Shown piece after piece: positions 41,852 through 54,741 of a stretch of 64,000 bases of DNA (within the stretch, counting starts at the first letter, position 1; every line of letters starts with the position of its first letter). The notes beneath the pieces were generated by a model that saw only the letters and a program-made list of their open reading frames with translations, was not told the origin of the DNA and searched no databases. The position numbers and the translations under genes were made by a program. Source of the stretch: Actinomycetota bacterium (GTDB lineage: Bacteria > Actinomycetota > Acidimicrobiia > Spongiisociales > UBA11373); contig JBDROA010000007.1 of NCBI GenBank assembly GCA_043810615.1, positions 1,390 to 65,389 of the forward strand, in the 5' to 3' direction.

Positions 41852-41936
41852 CCCGGCCGATCGGCCGAGCCGACGGCCGGCAAGGCCGGGGCCCCGCCGC
41901 TATCTTGGCCGGCAAGTGACGCCTCGAGGAGTCCTC

Positions 41937-42779
41937 GTGAAACACCCCAGCCGCGCCCTCATCGCCGGGCTCATGGCCAGTGTCTTGCTGGCCGCCGCCT
42001 GCGGTGACGACGGCGGCACCGGCACCACGGGGCCGGAGACGACCGCCACCGCTGCGACCACACCTTCGCCCACCACCACCAGCCAGGCCACCACCACCAC
42101 CACCCAGGCCACCACCACGACCCAGGCCACCACCACCACCGACCTGCACCCGGTCTGGGGGATCAGCTGGGCATCGGTCTGGCCGGCGGAGGGCTCTACC
42201 GCCACCTACCGCCTCGACCTGTGGAACGAGGAACCGGTCGATCTCCCCACCATCATCGAGTACGGCGTGGAGTGGGACGGGGGCACCTGGGATCGGATCC
42301 TCTTCGGCAGCACCGAGCCCGGCGAGTACGGGCTGGCCTTCTACTTCGACCGCTCCGATCCCTGGGTGATCCGGGTGTGGGGCCTTCGGGCCACCGGGCC
42401 GGGCATGGGCCCGCAGGGGGCTCTCGACGAGTACCTGGGGGGGTTCCCGGCCGTGGACCTGGCCGGGTTGCCCGACGTCGCTCCGACGCTCGACGTCGAC
42501 GCCTTCGTCGACAGCGGGGAGGGGAACCTGTACGGGCCGAGCCCGGCGGTGTACGCCCTTGAGGTGGTGGGCCTCGAGGAGGTCGCGGTGCCCGCCGGCA
42601 CCTTCGAGGTCAGCCTGCACATCCGCTTCGGCCTCGGCGGCGAGTTCTTCGGGGTCCAGGAGGGGCAGGAGATCGCCTCCTTCTCCGATCTCTGGGTCGA
42701 TCCCACCCAACTGATCCTGCGCTGGGACCCGGCCCCCGGCTTCGGGACGGCACTGGAGCTCGTGACCCCCTGGGAGTAA
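41937..42779 (+). CDS. Thr-rich lipoprotein, hypothetical
   Basis: GTG 41937 with GAGGAG upstream. Lipobox LLAAAC, TTTT linker, then a roughly 180-aa domain (...LHPVWGISWASVWPAEGSTATYRLD...). Confidence 0.7.
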   Translation: MKHPSRALIAGLMASVLLAAACGDDGGTGTTGPETTATAATTPSPTTTSQATTTTTQATTTTQATTTTDLHPVWGISWASVWPAEGSTATYRLDLWNEEPVDLPTIIEYGVEWDGGTWDRILFGSTEPGEYGLAFYFDRSDPWVIRVWGLRATGPGMGPQGALDEYLGGFPAVDLAGLPDVAPTLDVDAFVDSGEGNLYGPSPAVYALEVVGLEEVAVPAGTFEVSLHIRFGLGGEFFGVQEGQEIASFSDLWVDPTQLILRWDPAPGFGTALELVTPWE

Positions 42780-42799: not shown

Positions 42800-43712
42800 A
42801 TGCGGCGGCGGCCGTCCCTGGCCATGGTCCTGGGTCTCCCCGCGGTCGGCTGCGGCGTTGCGGCTTCCCCACCTCCACCACTACGGCGCCCACCACCACG
42901 ACGGTCCCGACGACGACCGCTCCGCCCGAACCTCGACCACCCTCCCGGCCGACCTCCATCCCCCCTGGGGCGTCGGGTGGGCGGCCATCTGGCCGGCGGA
43001 GGGAACCACCGCCACCTCTGAGGTCGGGGCCACCGACGACGACACCACCGAGGTCACGGCCCGCTTCGAGCCCGGCGTGGACCAGGAGGGGACGGGCCGG
43101 GATCGCATCGCGGTGGGCGTCGTCGAGGATGGGAAGCACGGGGCCGCCCTCTGCCTCCAGCGGACCGAGGCCCGGGTCCCGCGGCTCTGGGGCATGAAGG
43201 CCACCTCCGTCCAGGACACGTCCTGGACTACTTCGGGGAGCCCCCCGTCCTCGACCTGAGGGATCTGCCCGAAGAGCCCCCCACTATCGCTGGTGGCCTT
43301 CTGGTCCACGTGCCCGGGTCGTGCCTGGGCGATCCTCTCCCCGTCACCTACCGGCTCGAGTGGGTCGGCATCGAGACGGTGGAAGTGGCGGCGGGGACAT
43401 CCACCGACGCCCTCCACATGCAGATCGTGATGACCGGGGAGTCCTTCGAGTGGATGCGGGAAGGGGACGAGCCCGTCGTCTCGGACATGCGGCTCCAAGG
43501 CCGTCTTCCGGATCGAGTGGGTCGGGGTCGAAGACATCGAGGTCGCCCCGGGTGAGACGGAGCGGCTGGAGGTGTGCCACCTCCGCATTGGCCTCGGCGG
43601 GGACTTCTGCCCCCTGGGGCCGGGGGGCGAGATCACCTTCTTCTCCGACCTCTGGCTGCACCCCGGGCAACTGATGGTCGGTGGGAGCCCGGTCCGGCGG
43701 GAGGGCCATTAA
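42800..43712 (+). pseudogene. multiply frameshifted paralog of the 41937..42779 lipoprotein
   Basis: The signal plus lipobox (MRRRPSLAMVLGLPAVGCG) is in one frame. The Thr-rich linker (TSTTTAPTTTTVPTTT) is in a second. ADLHPPWGVGWAAIWPAEGTTATSEV... is in a third. ...LDYFGEPPVLDLRDLPEE...VTYRLEWVGIETVEV... is back in the first. VFRIEWVGVEDIEVAPGETERLEVCHLRIGLGGDF...DLWLHPGQL-stop (43712) is in another. Each piece aligns to the intact upstream paralog. Confidence 0.55.
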
Positions 43713-43907
43713 ACTGCCGATGCCCCGGGGCATGTACGACCGGCGAAGCAGGTGCCGGCGGGCGCTCCGTCCGCCGGCACCCTCAGCCACGGCCCGGGCC
43801 CTAGCGCCGCACCGGCTCCGACTCCCGCGTGGGCACCGGGACCGGCACGGCGCCGGGAGTCGTCGGCTCCTCGACGGGCGCCTGAATGGGCTCCGGTTCG
43901 ACGATGA

Positions 43908-44708
43908 TCACCCGCTTCTGCTCTCCGATGTCCATACTTCCCCAAACCTCCTCGCCTCATCCGTAAGGTACTCCACTGCGCACACCGGCAGGCCGGGACG
44001 GCCGGCGCGCACCCCGCCGGCCCTCTGGGCTTCCTCCCACCCGAGCCCCGGAGCGAACAGCCGGGCAATCCATTTCGGGTCGGATCGGCACACCAAGGCA
44101 CCGTCCCGCATCAGGGCCACCGCCGGCACCTCGGCCCGCTGCGCCCGGTAGCCGTGCTCGTGCTCGATCACCTTGCCGCTGAGGGCTACCAGGCCGTAGA
44201 TGATGCCGGGCCACGCTCCCGGCCGGGCCCCCCAGAGCGCCCCGGCGTCCTTGAAGGCATAGATGCCGCAGCGACAACACGGGGCGTCGTGCGGCGCCCC
44301 CGGCCCGCGGGGGCAGCGGGCCTCCAGTCGCGGCTCTTCCCAGACCTGCACCACGCCGCGCACGCCCAGCGAGGTGAGCCGCCACATGCGGAACCCCAGA
44401 ATGGGCGCCGGCGACCAGAACGCCCCCGCCGACCGCCCCCCGGCGGAGCGCGCCGGGTCCGGGGCCGGCGGCTCCACCGTCGTCTGCGCCCGCACCTGCT
44501 CCAGTTCCAGGATCTGCCGGCGAAGCGCCTCGGCCCCCTTCTGGCTCAGCACACGCGAGAGGGCCCTCCACCCCCGCTCGACCGCCGACGGCAGGGGCTC
44601 GCCCCATGTCACGCCGGGCAACGGCCCCTCGAGCCCGGAGGGCTCACCCCCTCCCGGGCCACTGTGGAACCACCCACCCGGAGGCCGCGGACCAGCCCCC
44701 GGCATCAT
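43908..44708 (-). CDS. uncharacterised protein with a coiled-coil N-terminus and a conserved Cys/His-rich C-terminal domain (gene C of the operon)
   Basis: ATG-ATG at 44708/44705 with GGGGAGG 4 nt upstream. It overlaps the TGA of the upstream gene (ATGA). The C-terminal domain reads FWSPAPILGFRMW...EARC...HDAPCCRCGIYAFK...LSGKVIEHEHGYRAQRA. A clear paralog lies at 51847..52905. Confidence 0.65.
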   Translation of the reverse strand: MMPGAGPRPPGGWFHSGPGGGEPSGLEGPLPGVTWGEPLPSAVERGWRALSRVLSQKGAEALRRQILELEQVRAQTTVEPPAPDPARSAGGRSAGAFWSPAPILGFRMWRLTSLGVRGVVQVWEEPRLEARCPRGPGAPHDAPCCRCGIYAFKDAGALWGARPGAWPGIIYGLVALSGKVIEHEHGYRAQRAEVPAVALMRDGALVCRSDPKWIARLFAPGLGWEEAQRAGGVRAGRPGLPVCAVEYLTDEARRFGEVWTSESRSG

Positions 44709-45700
44709 CGGGCCTCCCCGAACCACGACCGCCGCCCGCCCGCCTGCTGCCCTTCTGAGGGCATCCCTGCCCCGGCCGCCTCGGGGGCCCACAGCGCCGC
44801 CAGGTGCACCAGGGAGGAACCGACGACCAGGGCCGACACCACAGCGCCGGGGGCGGTGAGGAACACCACCTCGCCCAGGCCAACGGCGGCATGGGTGCTG
44901 GCCACCCCTCCCGATAGCGCCGCCACCCGGGCCACCCCCTCAGCGGCGAGGCCACCGCCCGGCCCGCCGAGCCCCACCCGGGCGTCGGCGGCATAGGAAC
45001 CCACCAGGCCCCGCCATAGGAACGCCAGCGTGTCGGGGCGGTCGAACACGTCGAGCGCCAGCGGCCGCGCCCCCACCAGGGCAAGCACGCCGCGTTGGCC
45101 GGCGGCCGGCCGCAGCGGCACGGTGATCTCGTCGATGGCCCCGGCCCGCCGGCGGTGCACCTCGGAGTACAAAGCCGTCGAGGAGTCCACCTCGTGCAGG
45201 CTGAGGTGGCGATCGACCGCGCCCCAGACCTCCCCCTGGTGGGAGCGGTACCCGACACCCCGGCGGGCCTCGTGCTGCACCCCGATGTTCTTGGCTGCCC
45301 TGACCCGGGGGGAGGCGTGGAGGTCCTCGCGCGCCATGGGCCGGGCAGCCCCCCAGCGGCCGGCCTCGACGCACGAGACCGGGATGGTCAGCGTGGCCTG
45401 GGCCGGCACCAGGACCGTGGTGTTCAGCGTGCGGGTCTGCCTGAGCCCGCCTAGCACCTCCCCTTCCAGGAGCAGCACCGGTCGGCCGGCGTGGTTGACG
45501 ACCTGCAGTTCGGGCACCGAGCCACCCCCCACTTCCTCGACCAGCACGACGCCTTCCGCCACCGCCCCGGCAAACAGCCGGTACGGAACGGCCTCACCGT
45601 CGTGGAAGACCGGCACCATGGTGAGCGGGCCCGACTGCTGCGGCTCGCCGAAGCGCAGGCCGCTCCCGAGCATCGTGGTTACGGTGTCGCCTGCCGTCAT
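44705..45700 (-). CDS. conserved hypothetical protein (gene B; resembles the database family ARPP-1/DUF6569, tentative)
   Basis: 331 aa. ...MVPVFHDGEAVPYRLFAGAVAEGVVLVEEVGGGSVPELQVVNHAGRPVLLLEGEVLGGLRQTRTLNTTVLVPAQATLTIPVSCVEAGRW... Its start overlaps the stop of gene A (ATGA at 45697-45700). Confidence 0.7.
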   Translation of the reverse strand: MTAGDTVTTMLGSGLRFGEPQQSGPLTMVPVFHDGEAVPYRLFAGAVAEGVVLVEEVGGGSVPELQVVNHAGRPVLLLEGEVLGGLRQTRTLNTTVLVPAQATLTIPVSCVEAGRWGAARPMAREDLHASPRVRAAKNIGVQHEARRGVGYRSHQGEVWGAVDRHLSLHEVDSSTALYSEVHRRRAGAIDEITVPLRPAAGQRGVLALVGARPLALDVFDRPDTLAFLWRGLVGSYAADARVGLGGPGGGLAAEGVARVAALSGGVASTHAAVGLGEVVFLTAPGAVVSALVVGSSLVHLAALWAPEAAGAGMPSEGQQAGGRRSWFGEAR

Positions 45701-46659
45701 TGGCCCTCCTTGGCACCACTGTCGCGCTCGCCTGTGACAGATCCGGCCGGCGCCGGCGGCGTACCGGTTGCCTGCCGCTCACGCCTCCGCCGTTCCGACT
45801 CCTCCACCGCCCGGCGCTTCTTCTCGCTCACCACGTTGGCGAACAGGCGGGCCGATGAAGACGCCGCCTCCACCTCCCCCAGGGTGAGATCGGCGGCCTG
45901 GGCAGAGGTCACCCGGTCCCAGGCGACACCCTTCTCGGCGGCATAGGCAGCGGCCGGCTGGCGGTGGCGGCGGGTACGGGTCTCGGCCCTCTGCAGGTAG
46001 TAGTGGGAGATCATGTGGAAGACCTCGCCGTTGCCGGCACGGAAGGTGAGGGCTACCGGCGCCTCACCCCAGCGCTCCTGCAGTTCCCGGCTCGAGATGA
46101 GCACCTTCACCCGGCCGGAGTCGAGCACCGTGATGGGGTACGAAGAGCCCTCGAGCCACCAGATCGGGTCGTCCGCCCCCTCCATGACGCCCCTGAGGAA
46201 CGGGTTGTCGTGTGCGGCCGCTTCGATTCGCACCACGGCGTCGCCAGTGGGCCGCTGGTTGAAGGCCACCACGCCGGGGAAGGCCGGTTCGACCACGTGG
46301 CGCAGCGCCCAGTCGGTGGTGAACAGGCTGCCGCCGGCCTCCACGAAGCGTCGCACCGCGTCCACGGCGGCGGCACCCACCTGCCCCGGGCAGTTGACCA
46401 CCAGCAGTTGCTCGGGCCGCAGTTCGAGGCCGGCCAGGTGATAGGGGTCCACCGCCAGGTGGGGCAGGTCCAGGGCCTCAAGGACCCACTCGACGTGGTC
46501 GTACTGCCCGCGCACCACCACGATATCCGACCCCTTCACCTGCTCGAGGATCTCGTGGATCCCCGGCGCTTCGCGAGCGATGGCATCGCGCGTGTGACGG
46601 CCTCCCACCTGGTAGGCCCTGCGGCGGCGATCCTCACGGCTGCTGTCGGTTCCGGTCAA
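45697..46659 (-). CDS. conserved hypothetical protein (gene A; possible class-I-amidotransferase/ThuA-like fold, tentative)
   Basis: TTG 46659 with GAGGAG 8 nt upstream. (M)TGTDSSREDRRRRAYQVGG...GSDIVVVRGQYDHVEWV...LLVVNCPGQVGAAAVDAVRRFVEAGGSLFTTDWALRH... The ORF-track start at 46812 falls in an AT-rich non-coding region. Confidence 0.6.
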   Translation of the reverse strand: MTGTDSSREDRRRRAYQVGGRHTRDAIAREAPGIHEILEQVKGSDIVVVRGQYDHVEWVLEALDLPHLAVDPYHLAGLELRPEQLLVVNCPGQVGAAAVDAVRRFVEAGGSLFTTDWALRHVVEPAFPGVVAFNQRPTGDAVVRIEAAAHDNPFLRGVMEGADDPIWWLEGSSYPITVLDSGRVKVLISSRELQERWGEAPVALTFRAGNGEVFHMISHYYLQRAETRTRRHRQPAAAYAAEKGVAWDRVTSAQAADLTLGEVEAASSSARLFANVVSEKKRRAVEESERRRRERQATGTPPAPAGSVTGERDSGAKEGQ

Positions 46660-46679
46660 GGCGGTTTCTCCTCGGCTCG

Positions 46680-46804
46680 ATAACACCACTGATGGTGCTA
46701 GAATAACACTGTTAGTGTAATCCGTCAACAATAGGCCTCCGATCCTTGGTGTCCTATGCCCTGAGTAGTAGGTTGGCTCCGAGAGGCGAAGAAAGGGCCC
46801 CGCC
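46680..46804. promoter_or_regulatory. AT-rich divergent promoter region between gene A (minus) and the XRE regulator (plus)
   Basis: ...ataacaccactgatggtgctagaataacactgttagtgtaatccgtcaacaataggcctcc... The region is locally far below the roughly 70% GC of its surroundings. Confidence 0.5.
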
Positions 46805-47350
46805 ATGGACATCTCTCACGAGCGCCCCGAGTTCTACGAGGCCCTGGGGCGCACCATCCAGGTGCTGCGGACCGACCAGAGCCTCGATCGCAAGGACCTC
46901 GCCGACCGTTGCGGTATCTCCTACTCGTACCTGGCAGCCATCGAGAACGGGAAGAAGCCCCCCTCTTCCAAGGTGCTGTTCGCCATCGCCGGCGCCCTGG
47001 GGCTGCTCAGCCACGAACTGCTCGCCTCGGTCGAAACCCGTTTCCGGCGGCAGCACCATCCTGCGGCAGCCGCCGCGCCCCGCTTCGCCGCCCCCTCGGC
47101 GCGCCAGGCCTGGTTCCACGCTGCCCCGGCGCCCACGGCCCGCGGGGCTGCGGCTCGGCCCGCCTCTCCCAACCGCGGCCGGCCCGAGGACTTCGCCCCG
47201 GGCCCTCGTGCCACCGGGCAGGCCTCCTCCCCGGTCCCCCACTCTGCCGCCGGGTTCCTCATGGAGCTCGAGCGCCTCGACCTCCAGCTCAGCGACGAGG
47301 ACCGGGACCTGGTGCTCGGCCTGGCCCGCCGCCTGGCGGGGGGCGAGTAG
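46805..47350 (+). CDS. XRE-family helix-turn-helix transcriptional regulator
   Basis: HTH_XRE region: ...LRTDQSLDRKDLADRCGISYSYLAAIENGKKPPSSKVLFAIAGALGL... The C-terminal half is low-complexity Ala/Pro-rich. Confidence 0.8.
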   Translation: MDISHERPEFYEALGRTIQVLRTDQSLDRKDLADRCGISYSYLAAIENGKKPPSSKVLFAIAGALGLLSHELLASVETRFRRQHHPAAAAAPRFAAPSARQAWFHAAPAPTARGAAARPASPNRGRPEDFAPGPRATGQASSPVPHSAAGFLMELERLDLQLSDEDRDLVLGLARRLAGGE

Positions 47351-50749: not shown

Positions 50750-51121
50750 ATGCGGCGCCCGACACCGATCCTCGCTGCGGCCCTGGCTGCCGCTGTGCTG
50801 CTCGCCGCCTGCTCGGGAGGCGAGACCGCCACAGCCCCGGCGGCCGCCACCCCGACCATCCCCGGCGGGGCCGATTTCGATGTGGTGATGGAGTCCTTCG
50901 CCTTCACCCCCGCCGAGTCGACCGTGCCCGCAGGAACCACCGTCACCTGGATCAACCGCCACGGCGCCAGGCACGATGTGGTCGCCGACGACGGCACCTT
51001 CGCCTCCCCCCTCTTCGGGCCAGGCGAGACCTTCTCGTTCACCTTCACCGCTGCCGGCGAGTACCACTACGTCTGCTCCATCCACCCGAGGATGGCGGGG
51101 ACGATCACCGTCACCCCGTAG
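50750..51121 (+). CDS. cupredoxin (type-1 blue copper) domain lipoprotein, amicyanin/pseudoazurin-like
   Basis: Lipobox LLAAC. Cu ligands in the usual order: H (...NRHGARHDV...), then C-x2-H-x2-M (YVCSIHPRM). Confidence 0.85.
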   Translation: MRRPTPILAAALAAAVLLAACSGGETATAPAAATPTIPGGADFDVVMESFAFTPAESTVPAGTTVTWINRHGARHDVVADDGTFASPLFGPGETFSFTFTAAGEYHYVCSIHPRMAGTITVTP

Positions 51122-51160
51122 CAGCCTCGCCGGCCGCGGGCGCCCCGCCCCCGGCTCCCC

Positions 51161-51763
51161 TCAGACGCCGCCGAGGCCCTTGCCCACAGTGAAGGCCGGA
51201 GCCAGGTACGGGCCGACCTCGTAGTAGGCCCCCTGCCCGGGGGCGTAGAGCAGGGGGCGCAGCAGGGCGATGTCGGGCAGGCCCCCGGGACCGAGAACGG
51301 CCTCGTCGGCCTTGACGTCGAGCACCTCGCCGACGAACTGGGTGTGCACCCCCAGGTCCGTGGCGTGGAGCAGCCGGCACTCGAACACGACGGGGAACTC
51401 CCCGACGTACGGAGCGTCAACGGTGGCGGCCCGCACCGGGGTGAGACCTGCGGCGGCGAACTTGTCCTCGTCGGCGCCGGAGGCGAGGCCGAGGTAGTCC
51501 ACCAGGCGCACCTGGTCTTGCGAGGCCAGGTTCACGGTGAACGCTCGCCGCTCCAGGATGCTGCGGTGGGAGTGGCGCGCCCGGCGGATCGACACCGCCA
51601 GGCAGGGCGGCTGCGAGCAGGCGATGCCCGCCCAGGCGGCCGTCATCGCGTTCGGCTTCCCGGCGGGGTCGTAGCTGCCGACCACCACCACCGGCGTGGG
51701 GTACAGAAGGGCCCGCGGGCCCAGGGATCGCTTCACTCCGTCTCCCTCAGGTGCTGCCGCCAC
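51161..51763 (-). CDS. flavin reductase-like (FMN-binding split-barrel) protein
   Basis: ...LLYPTPVVVVGSYDPAGKPNAMTAAWAGIACSQPPCLAVSIRR... matches the flavin reductase-like domain pattern. Confidence 0.75.
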   Translation of the reverse strand: MAAAPEGDGVKRSLGPRALLYPTPVVVVGSYDPAGKPNAMTAAWAGIACSQPPCLAVSIRRARHSHRSILERRAFTVNLASQDQVRLVDYLGLASGADEDKFAAAGLTPVRAATVDAPYVGEFPVVFECRLLHATDLGVHTQFVGEVLDVKADEAVLGPGGLPDIALLRPLLYAPGQGAYYEVGPYLAPAFTVGKGLGGV

Positions 51764-51846
51764 GGTAACCCGGCAGAAGGGGCACTAGGTCGGCCGCCCC
51801 CCCGTCGTCGATCCCCGGAGACCTCGGGGCCCGCCGGCCGGCCGCT

Positions 51847-52905
51847 CTAGCCGGCCGGGATGTGGAAGTCGCGCGCCAGCGTCAAGTAGGCGATGACCGC
51901 CTCGGCCATCTGCAGCGGATCGCCCACCTCCTCAACAACTGCCGGGTCGGTGGAGAGCAAGCCGTCGATGGTCGCCTCGGGAGCGACGAAGAGGCTCCGC
52001 AGGCGGGCGCTTCCCTCGATGCGGACAATCTGGCCGCGCCCGACCACCGCCGCGGCCAGCACTCGGGCCTTCTGGGATCGGTAGCCGCGCTCGTGCTCCA
52101 CCACCTTGCCCGACAGGGACGCCAGGCCCAGCACGCACCGGTTCGATCCTGCGGGCAGGCCGAAGGCGGCCAGCAGCTGCTCCGGTTCCTTGAAGCAGTA
52201 GAGGCCGCACGGCGGGGGGCCGCAGCGTCCGTCGGTATGAGGCACCTCGGTGGCGCCGCTCCCGGTGCGCGCCGACAGGCAGCGGGCCTCGTACTCGGGG
52301 CGGTCCCACGGCTTCCAGGCGCCGAAAAGGCGCCCCCGCAGTTCCCACGCGCGGAAGCCCAGCACCACCCCGGGCGACCAGAACTCCTGGAGCGGCGCCG
52401 GCTTGGACTTCGGCCGCCGGGCTCGCTTCGGCTTGGTCGCCGGCGCGGCCGGGCGCGGAGAAGGCGCCGCGGCCGGAACGGGCATCGCCCGAAGTTGCAT
52501 GGGCGTAGCAGGAGGAACGGCGGTGGCGGCCGCCTTCTTCTGCACCGGGGCCCGCGTGGCCGGGGCGGCGGCAGCGGCTCCGACCCGCTTGCGGGACGGC
52601 GCCGGGACCGGCATGGCGGGGATGGCCGGGGCCGGGGGCACCGGCGGAGCAGACTGGGCCCGGAGTGCCACCCGCTCCACGATGCCGGTGAGGGCCTGCT
52701 CGAACTCCCGGCGGCCGCGCCGGGCCTTCTCCGCGTTGTCGGTCCGGATGGCGTCTTCCAACGCCAGGCGCGCCAGACGCCGGCGGACCCCGCGCCCGGC
52801 CGACTCCGCGGCGCCCGGGTGATCACCCCCGCCGTCCATGGAGCGCAGAGACCGCTGCAGCCGGGCCAGGCGGTCCCACTCGGGCTGGGCGACGGCTCCA
52901 TCCAC
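51847..52905 (-). CDS. paralog of gene C (43908..44708): coiled-coil, Lys/Pro/Ala-rich linker, Cys/His-rich C-terminal domain
   Basis: Proposed GTG 52905. The ORF-track start at 53127 reads through an AT-richer probable leader. The C-terminal FWSPGVVLGFRAWEL...EARC...HTDGRCGPPPCGLYCFK...LSGKVVEHERGYRSQKA aligns block for block with 43908..44708. Confidence 0.6.
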   Translation of the reverse strand: MDGAVAQPEWDRLARLQRSLRSMDGGGDHPGAAESAGRGVRRRLARLALEDAIRTDNAEKARRGRREFEQALTGIVERVALRAQSAPPVPPAPAIPAMPVPAPSRKRVGAAAAAPATRAPVQKKAAATAVPPATPMQLRAMPVPAAAPSPRPAAPATKPKRARRPKSKPAPLQEFWSPGVVLGFRAWELRGRLFGAWKPWDRPEYEARCLSARTGSGATEVPHTDGRCGPPPCGLYCFKEPEQLLAAFGLPAGSNRCVLGLASLSGKVVEHERGYRSQKARVLAAAVVGRGQIVRIEGSARLRSLFVAPEATIDGLLSTDPAVVEEVGDPLQMAEAVIAYLTLARDFHIPAG

Positions 52906-53401
52906 TTCGCTACCCCTGAGAAGAACAGCAGTGTAGGTAGTCGAACAGGTGTTTGGCTCCTGGAGGACGCCGGGTTTTCGCGAGGTGCTGCTCGGTCGGG
53001 ACTCCCGAGCCGGGTACGCACCGCTGTCGGCACCGACCGCGACCATGCCACCTTCGCCGACCGGGCCGCGGGGGACGGGCCCCGTTTCGTCCTGCGCCGG
53101 AGCAACGGGGAGGAGACGCCCCGGCAAGCCCTGCGCCCCACGACCTGAAGGGAGTGCCGAGCCGGACCGATCCCGGCCGCCACAGCGGCCATCCGGAAGT
53201 GCCGGCCGGTCCGGGCGGCCGTCTGGCGGTCGTCGCTGCCGGGCCGGAGAGCCTGCCGGCCGAGATCACGGTGGTCTTCGTGGTGAGCCCGGTGAGGACA
53301 TGTGGCCCTCTGCCGGCGAAGGCCGGCCCCGGTTCTGCCTGGTCGGCGCAGCCCCCTGCCCCCAGAGGACGCAGGCCCGTGCCGCCCTCGCCGGCCCCGG
53401 G

Positions 53402-53989
53402 CTACCCGTCCGCGCAAGGCGCGACCGCCTCCTCCTCCTGGAGACGGATCGCGCTCGCCTTCTCCGGGTGGATGCCTCGCGTGCCGGCGTAGAAGGCGCG
53501 GATCGCCTTCATGTCGCCGGCGGCGTCGCCGCTCGGCGTCATCGCGGGCCCGAGGGTGATGCACCGGGTGGGCCGGTCGAGAGAGGCCGGGACAATCGGA
53601 ACCCCGGCGGCGAGGGCCATGTGGTAGAAGCCCGATCTCCAGTACGGGGTCGGGGTGCGCGTGCCCTCGGGGGCTATACCGACGACCAGGGAATCGGCGG
53701 CGGCGTAGCCGGCGGCGATCTGTTCGACGATGCCCTCGTGCCGTTCGCGATGTACCGGGATCCCGCCCATGCGGCGCAGGAACCCGGCCACCGGCCACCG
53801 GAAGATGCTGTGCTTGCCCAGCCAGCGGAGCCGGATGCCGAACCCCGCGGCCGCCAGCATTGCCAGGGGGAAGTCCCAGTTGCAGGTGTGCGGCCCGAAG
53901 ACCACGAGGTACTTGGGCAGGCGGGGAGTCTCTCCTGCCAGCCGCCACCCACGCCGCCGCAGCGCCCAGGTGGCGAGGCGTCGTCTCAC
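53402..53989 (-). CDS. lysophospholipid (1-acylglycerol-3-phosphate-type) acyltransferase
   Basis: HxxxxD motif HTCNWD and PEGTR block. 195 aa. Confidence 0.8.
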   Translation of the reverse strand: MRRRLATWALRRRGWRLAGETPRLPKYLVVFGPHTCNWDFPLAMLAAAGFGIRLRWLGKHSIFRWPVAGFLRRMGGIPVHRERHEGIVEQIAAGYAAADSLVVGIAPEGTRTPTPYWRSGFYHMALAAGVPIVPASLDRPTRCITLGPAMTPSGDAAGDMKAIRAFYAGTRGIHPEKASAIRLQEEEAVAPCADG

Positions 53990-54741
53990 AGATGTCCCTT
54001 CTGGCGTTGCCGGGCCCGCCGGTCCGGGCCCATTCTGCCAGGCGGTGGGCGGCCGCGCCGGTCGGACCCGCCCGCGCCCCGCGACGCAGTCGAAGAACGC
54101 GGCCGCCGCTCGGACGGCTTCCCCGGGAACCAGGTTCTCGAGACGATCGGTCTGAGCGCGCCGCTCGACGATGCCGATCCCGGCCGGGAGCCGGCCTCAT
54201 CGACCCGCGGCCCGACGTCGAGCGGTGGTACCTCGTCGGCTGCGCCGAGACCGACCCTGCCTTCCGGGGCCGCTGGCTCGTGCGGCGCACCGGCGTGGGC
54301 TTCGGCCTGGTGGCCGTGGCCCCCTACACCTGCACCGGCTTGGGGGCCGGGGTGTGGGAGACCTGCCCGGACGGTTGCCGGGTTGGGCGCACCCTCACCG
54401 GTGAGTGGTGCGACGCGCCTTGCGTCGAGGACTTCCATCGGCGGCCCTGCCTGGGCATCGCCCCCGGCACCTGGGTCCCCGGCGAGTGCACCGGCCCGCC
54501 TCCAGAGGTGCTGGCTCGCTTCGGGTGAGCCCGGAGGGCCTCCCGCCCGACTGGTTCGAGGCAGTCGTCGCCGGGGAGCCGACCGCCTGCCGTCGGAAGG
54601 CCGAAGTGTCGGGGTGGGTGCGCACGGTATTCCTCCACGCAATCGGCCACGCCCCGGGACGAGGGGAACGGCAACTGTGCGACCTGGGGTGGGCTGGGCT
54701 CGAGGCCTGCCGCCGGCCAGAAACTCAGCGCCCGGCGGCAC

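Follow-up and report, generated by a model that had tools for sequence, protein, structure and literature searches.

An undescribed protein family of the Acidimicrobiia, probably under SOS control, and its derived member without a coupled micro-protein

The closest described counterpart of the gene considered here is the actinobacterial LexA regulon, whose operator consensus, tCGAAC-N4-GNNCGa, was established by chromatin immunoprecipitation sequencing (ChIP-seq) and surface plasmon resonance (SPR) in Streptomyces venezuelae, imperfect SOS boxes having been found experimentally functional in Streptomyces as well (PMC9380542). The gene, referred to below as the target, lies in a stretch of 64,000 nucleotides (the window) from contig JBDROA010000007.1 of the Actinomycetota assembly GCA_043810615.1, a metagenome-assembled genome (MAG), and encodes the protein annotated by NCBI as hypothetical protein ABIJ48_00725 (P0001; 100% identity, 100% coverage). 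It is an ordinary-looking hypothetical protein of an undescribed, class-restricted and probably SOS-controlled family, and for its reading as a whole as a LexA-repressed, DNA-damage-inducible (SOS) protein, which is drawn from sequence, we see the balance as even. The core CGAAC-N4-GTTCG is the Gram-positive Cheo box, and lineage-specific hypothetical proteins are common members of SOS regulons. The motif found before the family genes equals the actinobacterial consensus, the same palindrome lies over the -35 region and the spacer, and the same boxes stand before lexA in related genomes (PMC9380542), but the target belongs to no described SOS gene family and its own box is imperfect. YneA, ChiZ (Rv2719c) and DivS are LexA-controlled and lineage-specific, as is predicted for the target, but they are small proteins of the membrane or LysM type, encoded divergently from lexA, whereas the target product has 352 aa, is cytoplasmic and carries a domain with a predicted metal site. 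A further point of comparison is provided by the systems of ARPP, the ARG and rhodanese-phosphatase-associated protein, in which DNA-end-binding HIRAN and WYL regulators are neighbours of ARPP-1, a setting suggestive of DNA damage (Iyer, Burroughs, Anantharaman, Aravind 2022, PMC9503650). A second family member in the window, copy 1, is linked to an ARPP-1 gene by translational coupling through an ATGA overlap; as HIRAN and WYL domains are among the published partners, this link fits a DNA-damage theme. The target itself does not lie next to an ARPP gene, and the C-terminal domain of the family is not among the published ARPP partners (PMC9503650).

51847..52905, minus strand: coding sequence of the target, 352 aa plus stop, GTG start; a paralog without the micro-ORF D described below, supported by NCBI identity and by the phase of the GC content at third codon positions (GC3)

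The evidence that carries the SOS reading lies in the promoters of the family. A genomic scan with one genome per GTDB species found 67 loci, and upstream of nearly all family genes other than the target there stands the sequence TTGCGAAC-N4-GTTCGA and, after it, a TAnnnT hexamer. The perfect box CGAAC-N4-GTTCG occurs 65 times in 737 kb of non-redundant related loci, against 0.7 expected from shuffles; 47 of the 65 precede family genes, and 15 of the other 18 form triplets ahead of lexA in five loci (L049, 7465-7566; L053, 6577-6613 and 8096-8109; L055, 7440-7577; L056, 4676-4876; L077, 5783-5994). The lexA gene was identified in L055 by its LexA_DNA_bind (3.5e-23) and Peptidase_S24 (5.6e-35) domains, and close homologs occupy the same place in L049, L053, L056 and L077. 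A census of 68 evaluable family genes gave a perfect box for 44, a box with one mismatch for 15, and two or three mismatches at best for nine; most of these nine either are copy-1-type genes within A-(B)-C-D operons or come second in a tandem, and one of them, in L033, has a perfect box beyond the scanned range. When the promoters are lined up by the box, they take the form TTGCGA-17 nt-TAnnnT, and the operator covers the -35 region and the spacer. Since perfect boxes stand before 44 of the 68 family genes and before lexA in five loci, the family is very probably LexA-repressed, as judged from these sequences. A full-text literature search combining LexA, Acidimicrobiia and SOS found no experimental study of an Acidimicrobiia LexA regulon; the single paper in which all three occur appears to be a review of another subject.

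In L055, the locus that was translated, lexA has as neighbours a divergent gene for a LysM and transmembrane protein and a gene resembling nrdR, which is the usual arrangement in Actinobacteria. The end of the C-D pair (a family gene and the micro-ORF D following it) lies about 0.9-1 kb upstream of the first lexA box in L049, L053, L055, L056 and L077. This arrangement bears on the proposal that the family supplies the SOS cell-division inhibitor of the lineage, an analogue of SulA, YneA, ChiZ or DivS whose coiled coil acts on the divisome. LexA control, the helical N-terminus and the position of the C-D pair within 1 kb of lexA in five loci are in its favour, but the canonical candidate is already there in the LysM and transmembrane gene that diverges from lexA next to nrdR, no membrane segment is present in the target (Kyte-Doolittle maximum 1.27), and genomes hold up to three paralogs, unlike the case of known inhibitors. 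We consider this proposal very improbable, and return to LexA control as it applies to the target itself, the promoter of which contains the following elements.

52942..52955, minus strand: SOS-box-like operator CAAACACCTGTTCG, one mismatch from CGAAC-N4-GTTCG, matching 9 of the 10 core positions
52930..52952, minus strand: 23-mer ACACCTGTTCGACTACCTACACT, identical in seven target-clade loci, its last 6 nt (52930-52935) being a -10-like TACACT
52975..52983, minus strand: TCGCGAAAA box, a second position-specific upstream promoter motif, with CGCGAAA at 52976-52982
52913..52917, minus strand: ribosome-binding site AGGGG, 8 nt upstream of the GTG

The operator of the target reads CAAAC-ACCT-GTTCG within the 24-bp stretch AGCCAAACACCTGTTCGACTACCT; TACACT follows 6 nt later, and another 24 nt lead to the GTG; the real 5' untranslated region is probably about 18 nt long. 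The 23-mer is identical in the window, L001, L007, L008, L013, L014 and L078 and differs at 2-4 positions in L011, L012 and L015, whereas the intergenic DNA around it diverges among the 10 loci; within the window it is single-copy. The change from CGAAC to CAAAC is present in all eight non-redundant target-clade genes evaluated, the window gene included. With a position weight matrix (PWM) built solely from the boxes of lexA genes, the site at 52939-52958 scores 15.0 bits, and no other site in the 64-kb window exceeds 6.8 (mean -40.5, standard deviation 10.6).

Several observations weigh against reading the target as an SOS protein. Its score of 15 bits falls below the 22-32 bits of true lexA boxes, the change in its box is a G-to-A exchange within the GAAC core, and the target clade has lost the TTG of the -35. 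The box of the target has the family's spacing to the -10-like TACACT, but a simple sigma-70 scan detected no promoter there. The conserved 23-mer also reaches 9 nt beyond the operator, into the -10, so another factor could be what is conserved, and no known repair, recombination or checkpoint protein homologous to the target was found in the sequence and fold searches. Because of the CAAAC change, the low PWM score and the lost -35 TTG, we rate LexA control lower for the target than for the family; judged on its sequence it is still rather probable, possibly in a weaker or modified form.

The same promoter can be explained by a decayed operator, in which case the target would be a constitutive, nucleoid- or RNA-associated structural protein and the 23-mer would serve another regulator or the promoter itself. 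Such a reading agrees with the single core mismatch and the lost -35 TTG, with the conservation that runs 9 nt past the box into the -10, with the extra CGCGAAA motif, which suggests a second factor, and with the histone-like basic linker of the protein. However, the CAAAC variant also occurs in L023 and L027, whose family genes are followed by D and keep TTGC at the -35 of the standard layout, all orthologs keep the half-sites although the N4 spacer varies (ACTT in L011, GTGT in L015), and the target site is the top PWM site of the window. A decayed operator therefore appears unlikely to us. As for the CGCGAAA motif, 31 of 59 promoters, that of the target included, have it at a distance of 27-30 nt upstream from the SOS box, against a background of 0.07 per kb; it is sometimes duplicated 20-21 nt apart or inverted beside the -35. 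The mycobacterial RecA-independent (PafBC) promoter motif is TGTCGGTG-N8-TAnnnT; on inspection, its spacing and sequence do not fit, and it was rejected as an explanation.

The protein itself can be divided into three parts, its frame being backed by a GC3 of 0.86-0.96 over 51780-52800 and its start residue being that of the orthologs in the alignments.

52651..52887, minus strand: N-terminal helical region, residues 7-85, with helices 7-24 and 38-85 in the AlphaFold2 model
52396..52650, minus strand: disordered Pro/Ala-rich basic linker, residues 86-170, from AlphaFold2 and composition, with a predicted local distance difference test score (pLDDT) below 50 at 104-143
51850..52395, minus strand: C-terminal globular domain (C-domain), residues 171-352, from alignments and the AlphaFold2 domain model

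The first-pass annotation had described the target as a second copy of the domain protein of copy 1 (gene C), and the two are indeed true paralogs. BLASTP aligns the target with the ORF (open reading frame) at 43908..44792 at 40% identity over 141 aa (E 2e-19; residues 155-294 against 109-234), and the family alignments agree with this match. In the family alignments the similarity extends past the short motifs and covers the C-terminal helices as well, F306 being one of the 18-22 invariant columns; both window proteins have every invariant column when aligned with sets of 25, 90 and 59 relatives. The invariant residues are R185, W187, G195, A207, C209, P222, H223, C228, C233, G234, G260, G266, V268, E270, H271, G274, R276 and F306. 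They are embedded in the C-domain motifs FWSP..LGFR.W, EARC, VPHTDGRCG.PPCG[IL]Y..K and GLVALSGKVVEHERGYR (in its family form G[LM]V.L.GKVVEHERGYR), all of which the target contains, and the target matches the family hidden Markov model (HMM), which was built with the target included, at E 1.7e-64. Among the invariant positions are Cys-His-Cys-Cys at the spacing C-x13-H-x4-C-x4-C and a Glu-His-x4-Arg. The four invariant Cys/His residues of the C-domain suggest a metal site, which is predicted for this reason. A cytidine-deaminase-like H-x-E…PCxxC zinc site was considered and rejected, as its spacing is wrong and there is no fold match.

With the family alignment as input, AlphaFold2 gave a compact alpha/beta domain at residues 175-350 with a pLDDT above 95, and the C-domain modelled alone reached a pLDDT of 92.5 and a predicted template modelling (TM) score of 0.88. 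The protein ends in …ARDFHIPAG, and no D-like ORF comes after it. At the other end, a predicted coiled coil followed by a Lys/Pro/Ala-rich linker had been proposed. The helices stand: they align with the N-termini of other family members, which have the same helix-loop-long helix layout. The coiled coil itself is weakly supported, as a simple heptad count finds 7 of 13 a/d positions hydrophobic, and the N-termini of relatives gave only noise matches of the coiled-coil type in Pfam and PDB profile searches; "long amphipathic helix" is the safer label. As modelled, the region is a possible oligomerisation module. The linker is as it had been described, with 23 Pro, 26 Ala and 15 Lys/Arg and no Asp/Glu over residues 86-170 (net +15), and it includes a conserved KPKRARRPKSKP patch directly before the domain. 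In the target clade the linker has a median of 55 aa and a net charge of +10, whereas D-type members, those followed by micro-ORF D, have no such linker.

An exhaustive profile search with clustering at 50% identity recovered 170 clusters at E <= 1e-30, a number that rises to 555 when the limit is E <= 1e-10. The best 150 all have 160-372 aa, and the seven longest, read whole, show the layout of helix and domain and no extra recognisable domain. All 67 loci of the genomic scan come from uncultured Actinomycetota MAGs, for the most part Acidimicrobiia, with the labels Acidimicrobiia, Acidimicrobiaceae, Actinomycetota or "bacterium", one being labelled Actinomycetes, and the family is apparently restricted to Acidimicrobiia. 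Several MAGs contain two or three copies. The MAG of the window has a third member on another contig (P0062, ABIJ48_10360, 283 aa), which is of the D-less "other" type, like L006, L031 and L040, where the SOS box is perfect or has one mismatch. At least three family members in the MAG, a micro-ORF overlapping copy 1 and the SOS boxes of the family are thus to be added to the first-pass annotation, which had missed them.

The family is undescribed and matches no known family, and its fold is unmatched in the PDB. Searches of Pfam, NCBIfam, PADLOC and PHROGs returned no family for the target, copy 1 or micro-protein D; in Pfam the C-domain of the target itself had no match at E <= 1, and a PDB sequence-profile search with the family gave coiled-coil noise only. 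Foldseek against the PDB found nothing better than E 0.2 and TM 0.2 with the full-length and domain models. The only matches of the C-domain model above noise are viral predicted structures, namely Streptomyces phage BRock A0A1J0GW93 (E 9e-6), uncultured Caudovirales A0A6J5RL70 (E 3e-5) and several DUF7666 proteins (E 5e-3 to 5e-2), and the sequence searches given below did not bear these matches out. They may share with the C-domain a "C..G-aromatic" turn followed by a long beta hairpin. To our knowledge, DUF7666 has no known function, and no paper found in a literature search mentions it. These matches raise the question of a phage-derived or conflict-system gene related to phage DUF7666-like proteins, for which the ARPP-1 and XRE context would be relevant and SOS would not. 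Apart from the viral origin of all significant fold matches, such an origin would suit copy 1, whose variable island also contains ARPP-1 and a divergently oriented XRE helix-turn-helix (HTH) gene. The target, however, is found in conserved chromosomal synteny in at least eight species-level genomes; tblastn against 50,697 phage genomes and a scan of 2.9 million viral contigs of IMG/VR found no relative; there is no PHROG match; in a Pfam scan of 59 members, mostly returning noise of the coiled-coil type, DUF7666 is not among the 25 best-represented of 38 families; and the TM-scores of the viral matches are just 0.33-0.44. We regard this origin as improbable. The family HMM, run over 100 kb of the BRock genome with the final 12.5 kb excluded, did not identify the Foldseek-matched protein.

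Copy 1 and the genes around it differ from the target in their arrangement.

43908..44708, minus strand: copy 1 (gene C), its ATG overlapping the stop of gene B (ATGA); coupled to D and without an SOS box of its own
44705..45700: gene B, Pfam ARPP-1 (PF20208), E 1e-67
45697..46812, minus strand: gene A, without a Pfam or NCBIfam match
43801..43935, minus strand: micro-ORF D, 44 aa, MDIGEQKRVIIVEPEP…, NCBI hypothetical protein ABIJ48_00670, the only D in the window

Copy 1 sits in an operon A-B-C with the XRE HTH gene divergent from it, and D begins, in the -1 frame, 25 nt ahead of the stop codon of copy 1. D follows about 50 of about 70 family genes, overlapping them by 25, 7, 19 or 28 nt (for example L002, 6816-6947; L005, 1894-2034; L008, 14936-15076; and about 45 further loci), and the conserved W-T(-S-E) C-termini of the D-type proteins are due to this overlap. 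The D family has 30-70 aa, an invariant N-terminus MDIG(E/K)xxRVIxVEP and a variable acidic Pro/Glu tail with a net charge of -2 to -12; all its relatives are hypothetical proteins. The target clade is D-less across about 45-68 representatives with no sign of decay. Compared with most of the family, it has lost the coupled acidic D and gained a basic linker, and its -35 and one operator half-site are weakened.

The variable island lies between PorA and a fumarase gene and contains XRE-HTH/A/ARPP-1/C/D in the window (43801..47350) and in L078 (14935-18534). A-C-D without ARPP-1 is found in L008 (12575-15076) and L070, from which it follows that ARPP-1 is dispensable for copy-1-type operons. A lone D after PorA, without an SOS box, is present in L001 (11838-11984), L011, L014 and L015, target-clade genomes without A and C. 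L026 is also listed among the loci with this island. Gene A is 82% identical to its homolog in L008 as opposed to 53% for gene C; since the longest ORF of gene A runs 8 nt into the start of the divergent HTH gene, its real start is probably near 46656. Just downstream of D lie two adjacent plus-strand ORFs (41916..42779 and 42858..43259), both with a Thr/Pro-rich N-terminal region and with the motif DLHP.WG..WA..WPAEG.TAT. Neither has a Pfam match, and the two resemble a tandem of paralogs of a lipoprotein-like kind.

The conserved partnership with D is the basis for a further explanation, a damage-induced growth-arrest or toxin-like pair in which the C-domain would be an effector neutralised or tuned by D, and the target an effector lacking a partner of its own, which would be either uncontrolled or regulated in trans from the D gene 8 kb away. 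The translational coupling of D to most family genes, its persistence alone after PorA in four loci, and the opposite charges of D and of the target linker (acidic and basic, respectively) speak for such a pair. Neither partner, however, resembles toxin or antitoxin families or PADLOC defence models, both genes would share one LexA promoter, the lone D genes have no SOS box, and the target clade is stably D-less. The explanation is quite unlikely in our view, and the SOS reading is retained in what follows.

The target had been described as unlinked to genes A and B and as lying upstream of a flavin reductase behind a leader of 500 bp; both statements on the neighbours are borne out, as it is flanked by the two genes below.

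53402..53989: acyltransferase, upstream neighbour of the target
51161..51763: flavin reductase, downstream neighbour of the target

Orthologs of the target, 49-86% identical, lie in a block of acyltransferase, target, flavin reductase, cupredoxin/HxlR, trypsin-PDZ protease and PorA (L001, L007, L008, L011-L015, L078), with an M28 peptidase gene between the target ortholog and the flavin reductase in L007. Family members outside this clade have unrelated neighbours and none lies beside a flavin reductase; clustering of the flanking ORFs of 58 loci showed that no larger neighbour recurs and that micro-ORF D alone does. Because the neighbours recur in the target clade alone, the adjacency to flavin reductase and acyltransferase is vertical synteny of one clade and not evidence of a shared function, and a functional operon with either gene was rejected on the same ground.

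The size of the gap between acyltransferase and target, given as 500 bp, is right (496 bp), but a conserved leader it is not, since L001, L007 and L008 have gaps of 108-135 bp and L078, the nearest relative, has one of about 240 bp. Conservation is limited to the proximal 95 bp or so before the target start; neither the length nor the distal sequence is conserved in the orthologs, and the gap was rejected as a leader. A search of 51000-54200 against Rfam at E <= 1 found no known riboswitch or leader RNA. The distal gap (52984..53401) is specific to the window; a phase signal of the GC3 type extends over 52980-53160 in the plus-strand frame that ends at 53148. The signal had suggested a small gene on the plus strand within 52950-53150, which was rejected because this frame has no start codon outside the target gene; the distal gap may be a gene remnant, a reading that rests on the weak coding-like phase together with the missing usable start codon.

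Taken together with the promoter, the layout of the protein permits a mechanism to be proposed. In undamaged cells, LexA would occupy CAAAC-ACCT-GTTCG, which ends 6 nt upstream of TACACT, and block transcription; upon DNA damage, RecA-stimulated self-cleavage of LexA would free the target promoter. The product would then probably self-associate through its long N-terminal helices, and the acid-free linker of Pro, Ala, Lys and Arg with its charge of +15 would probably hold the protein on nucleic acid, in analogy to the Lys/Ala/Pro tails of actinobacterial nucleoid proteins. The C-domain, which would be stabilised by the Cys-His-Cys-Cys metal site and display the invariant Arg, Trp, Lys, Tyr and Glu-His, probably binds a damage-related ligand such as a DNA structure, a lesion or a partner protein. 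A DNA-tethered SOS factor is our best guess as to the biochemical role of the target, and the specific mechanism of DNA-tethered ligand binding is offered as rather doubtful in its details.

LexA regulons of non-model bacteria hold many lineage-specific genes of unclear role, and the target family provides unusually clean evidence for one of them, with a perfect operator before most members across a bacterial class known almost only from metagenomes. Its conserved partner, micro-protein D, is too short for standard domain searches and has no functional annotation. What had made the target appear odd, a long leader and a flavin reductase neighbour, is replaced by a defined regulatory element and a clear subfamily identity. 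The Acidimicrobiia, which are abundant in soils, sediments and wastewater, may tentatively be credited with a hitherto unrecognised, class-wide SOS module made of a new-fold metal-site protein and a coupled acidic micro-protein, of which the target would be a derived version, independent of the micro-protein and acting on damaged DNA with a histone-tail-like linker. In any case, the family is a concrete and testable entry into the DNA-damage response of the Acidimicrobiia.

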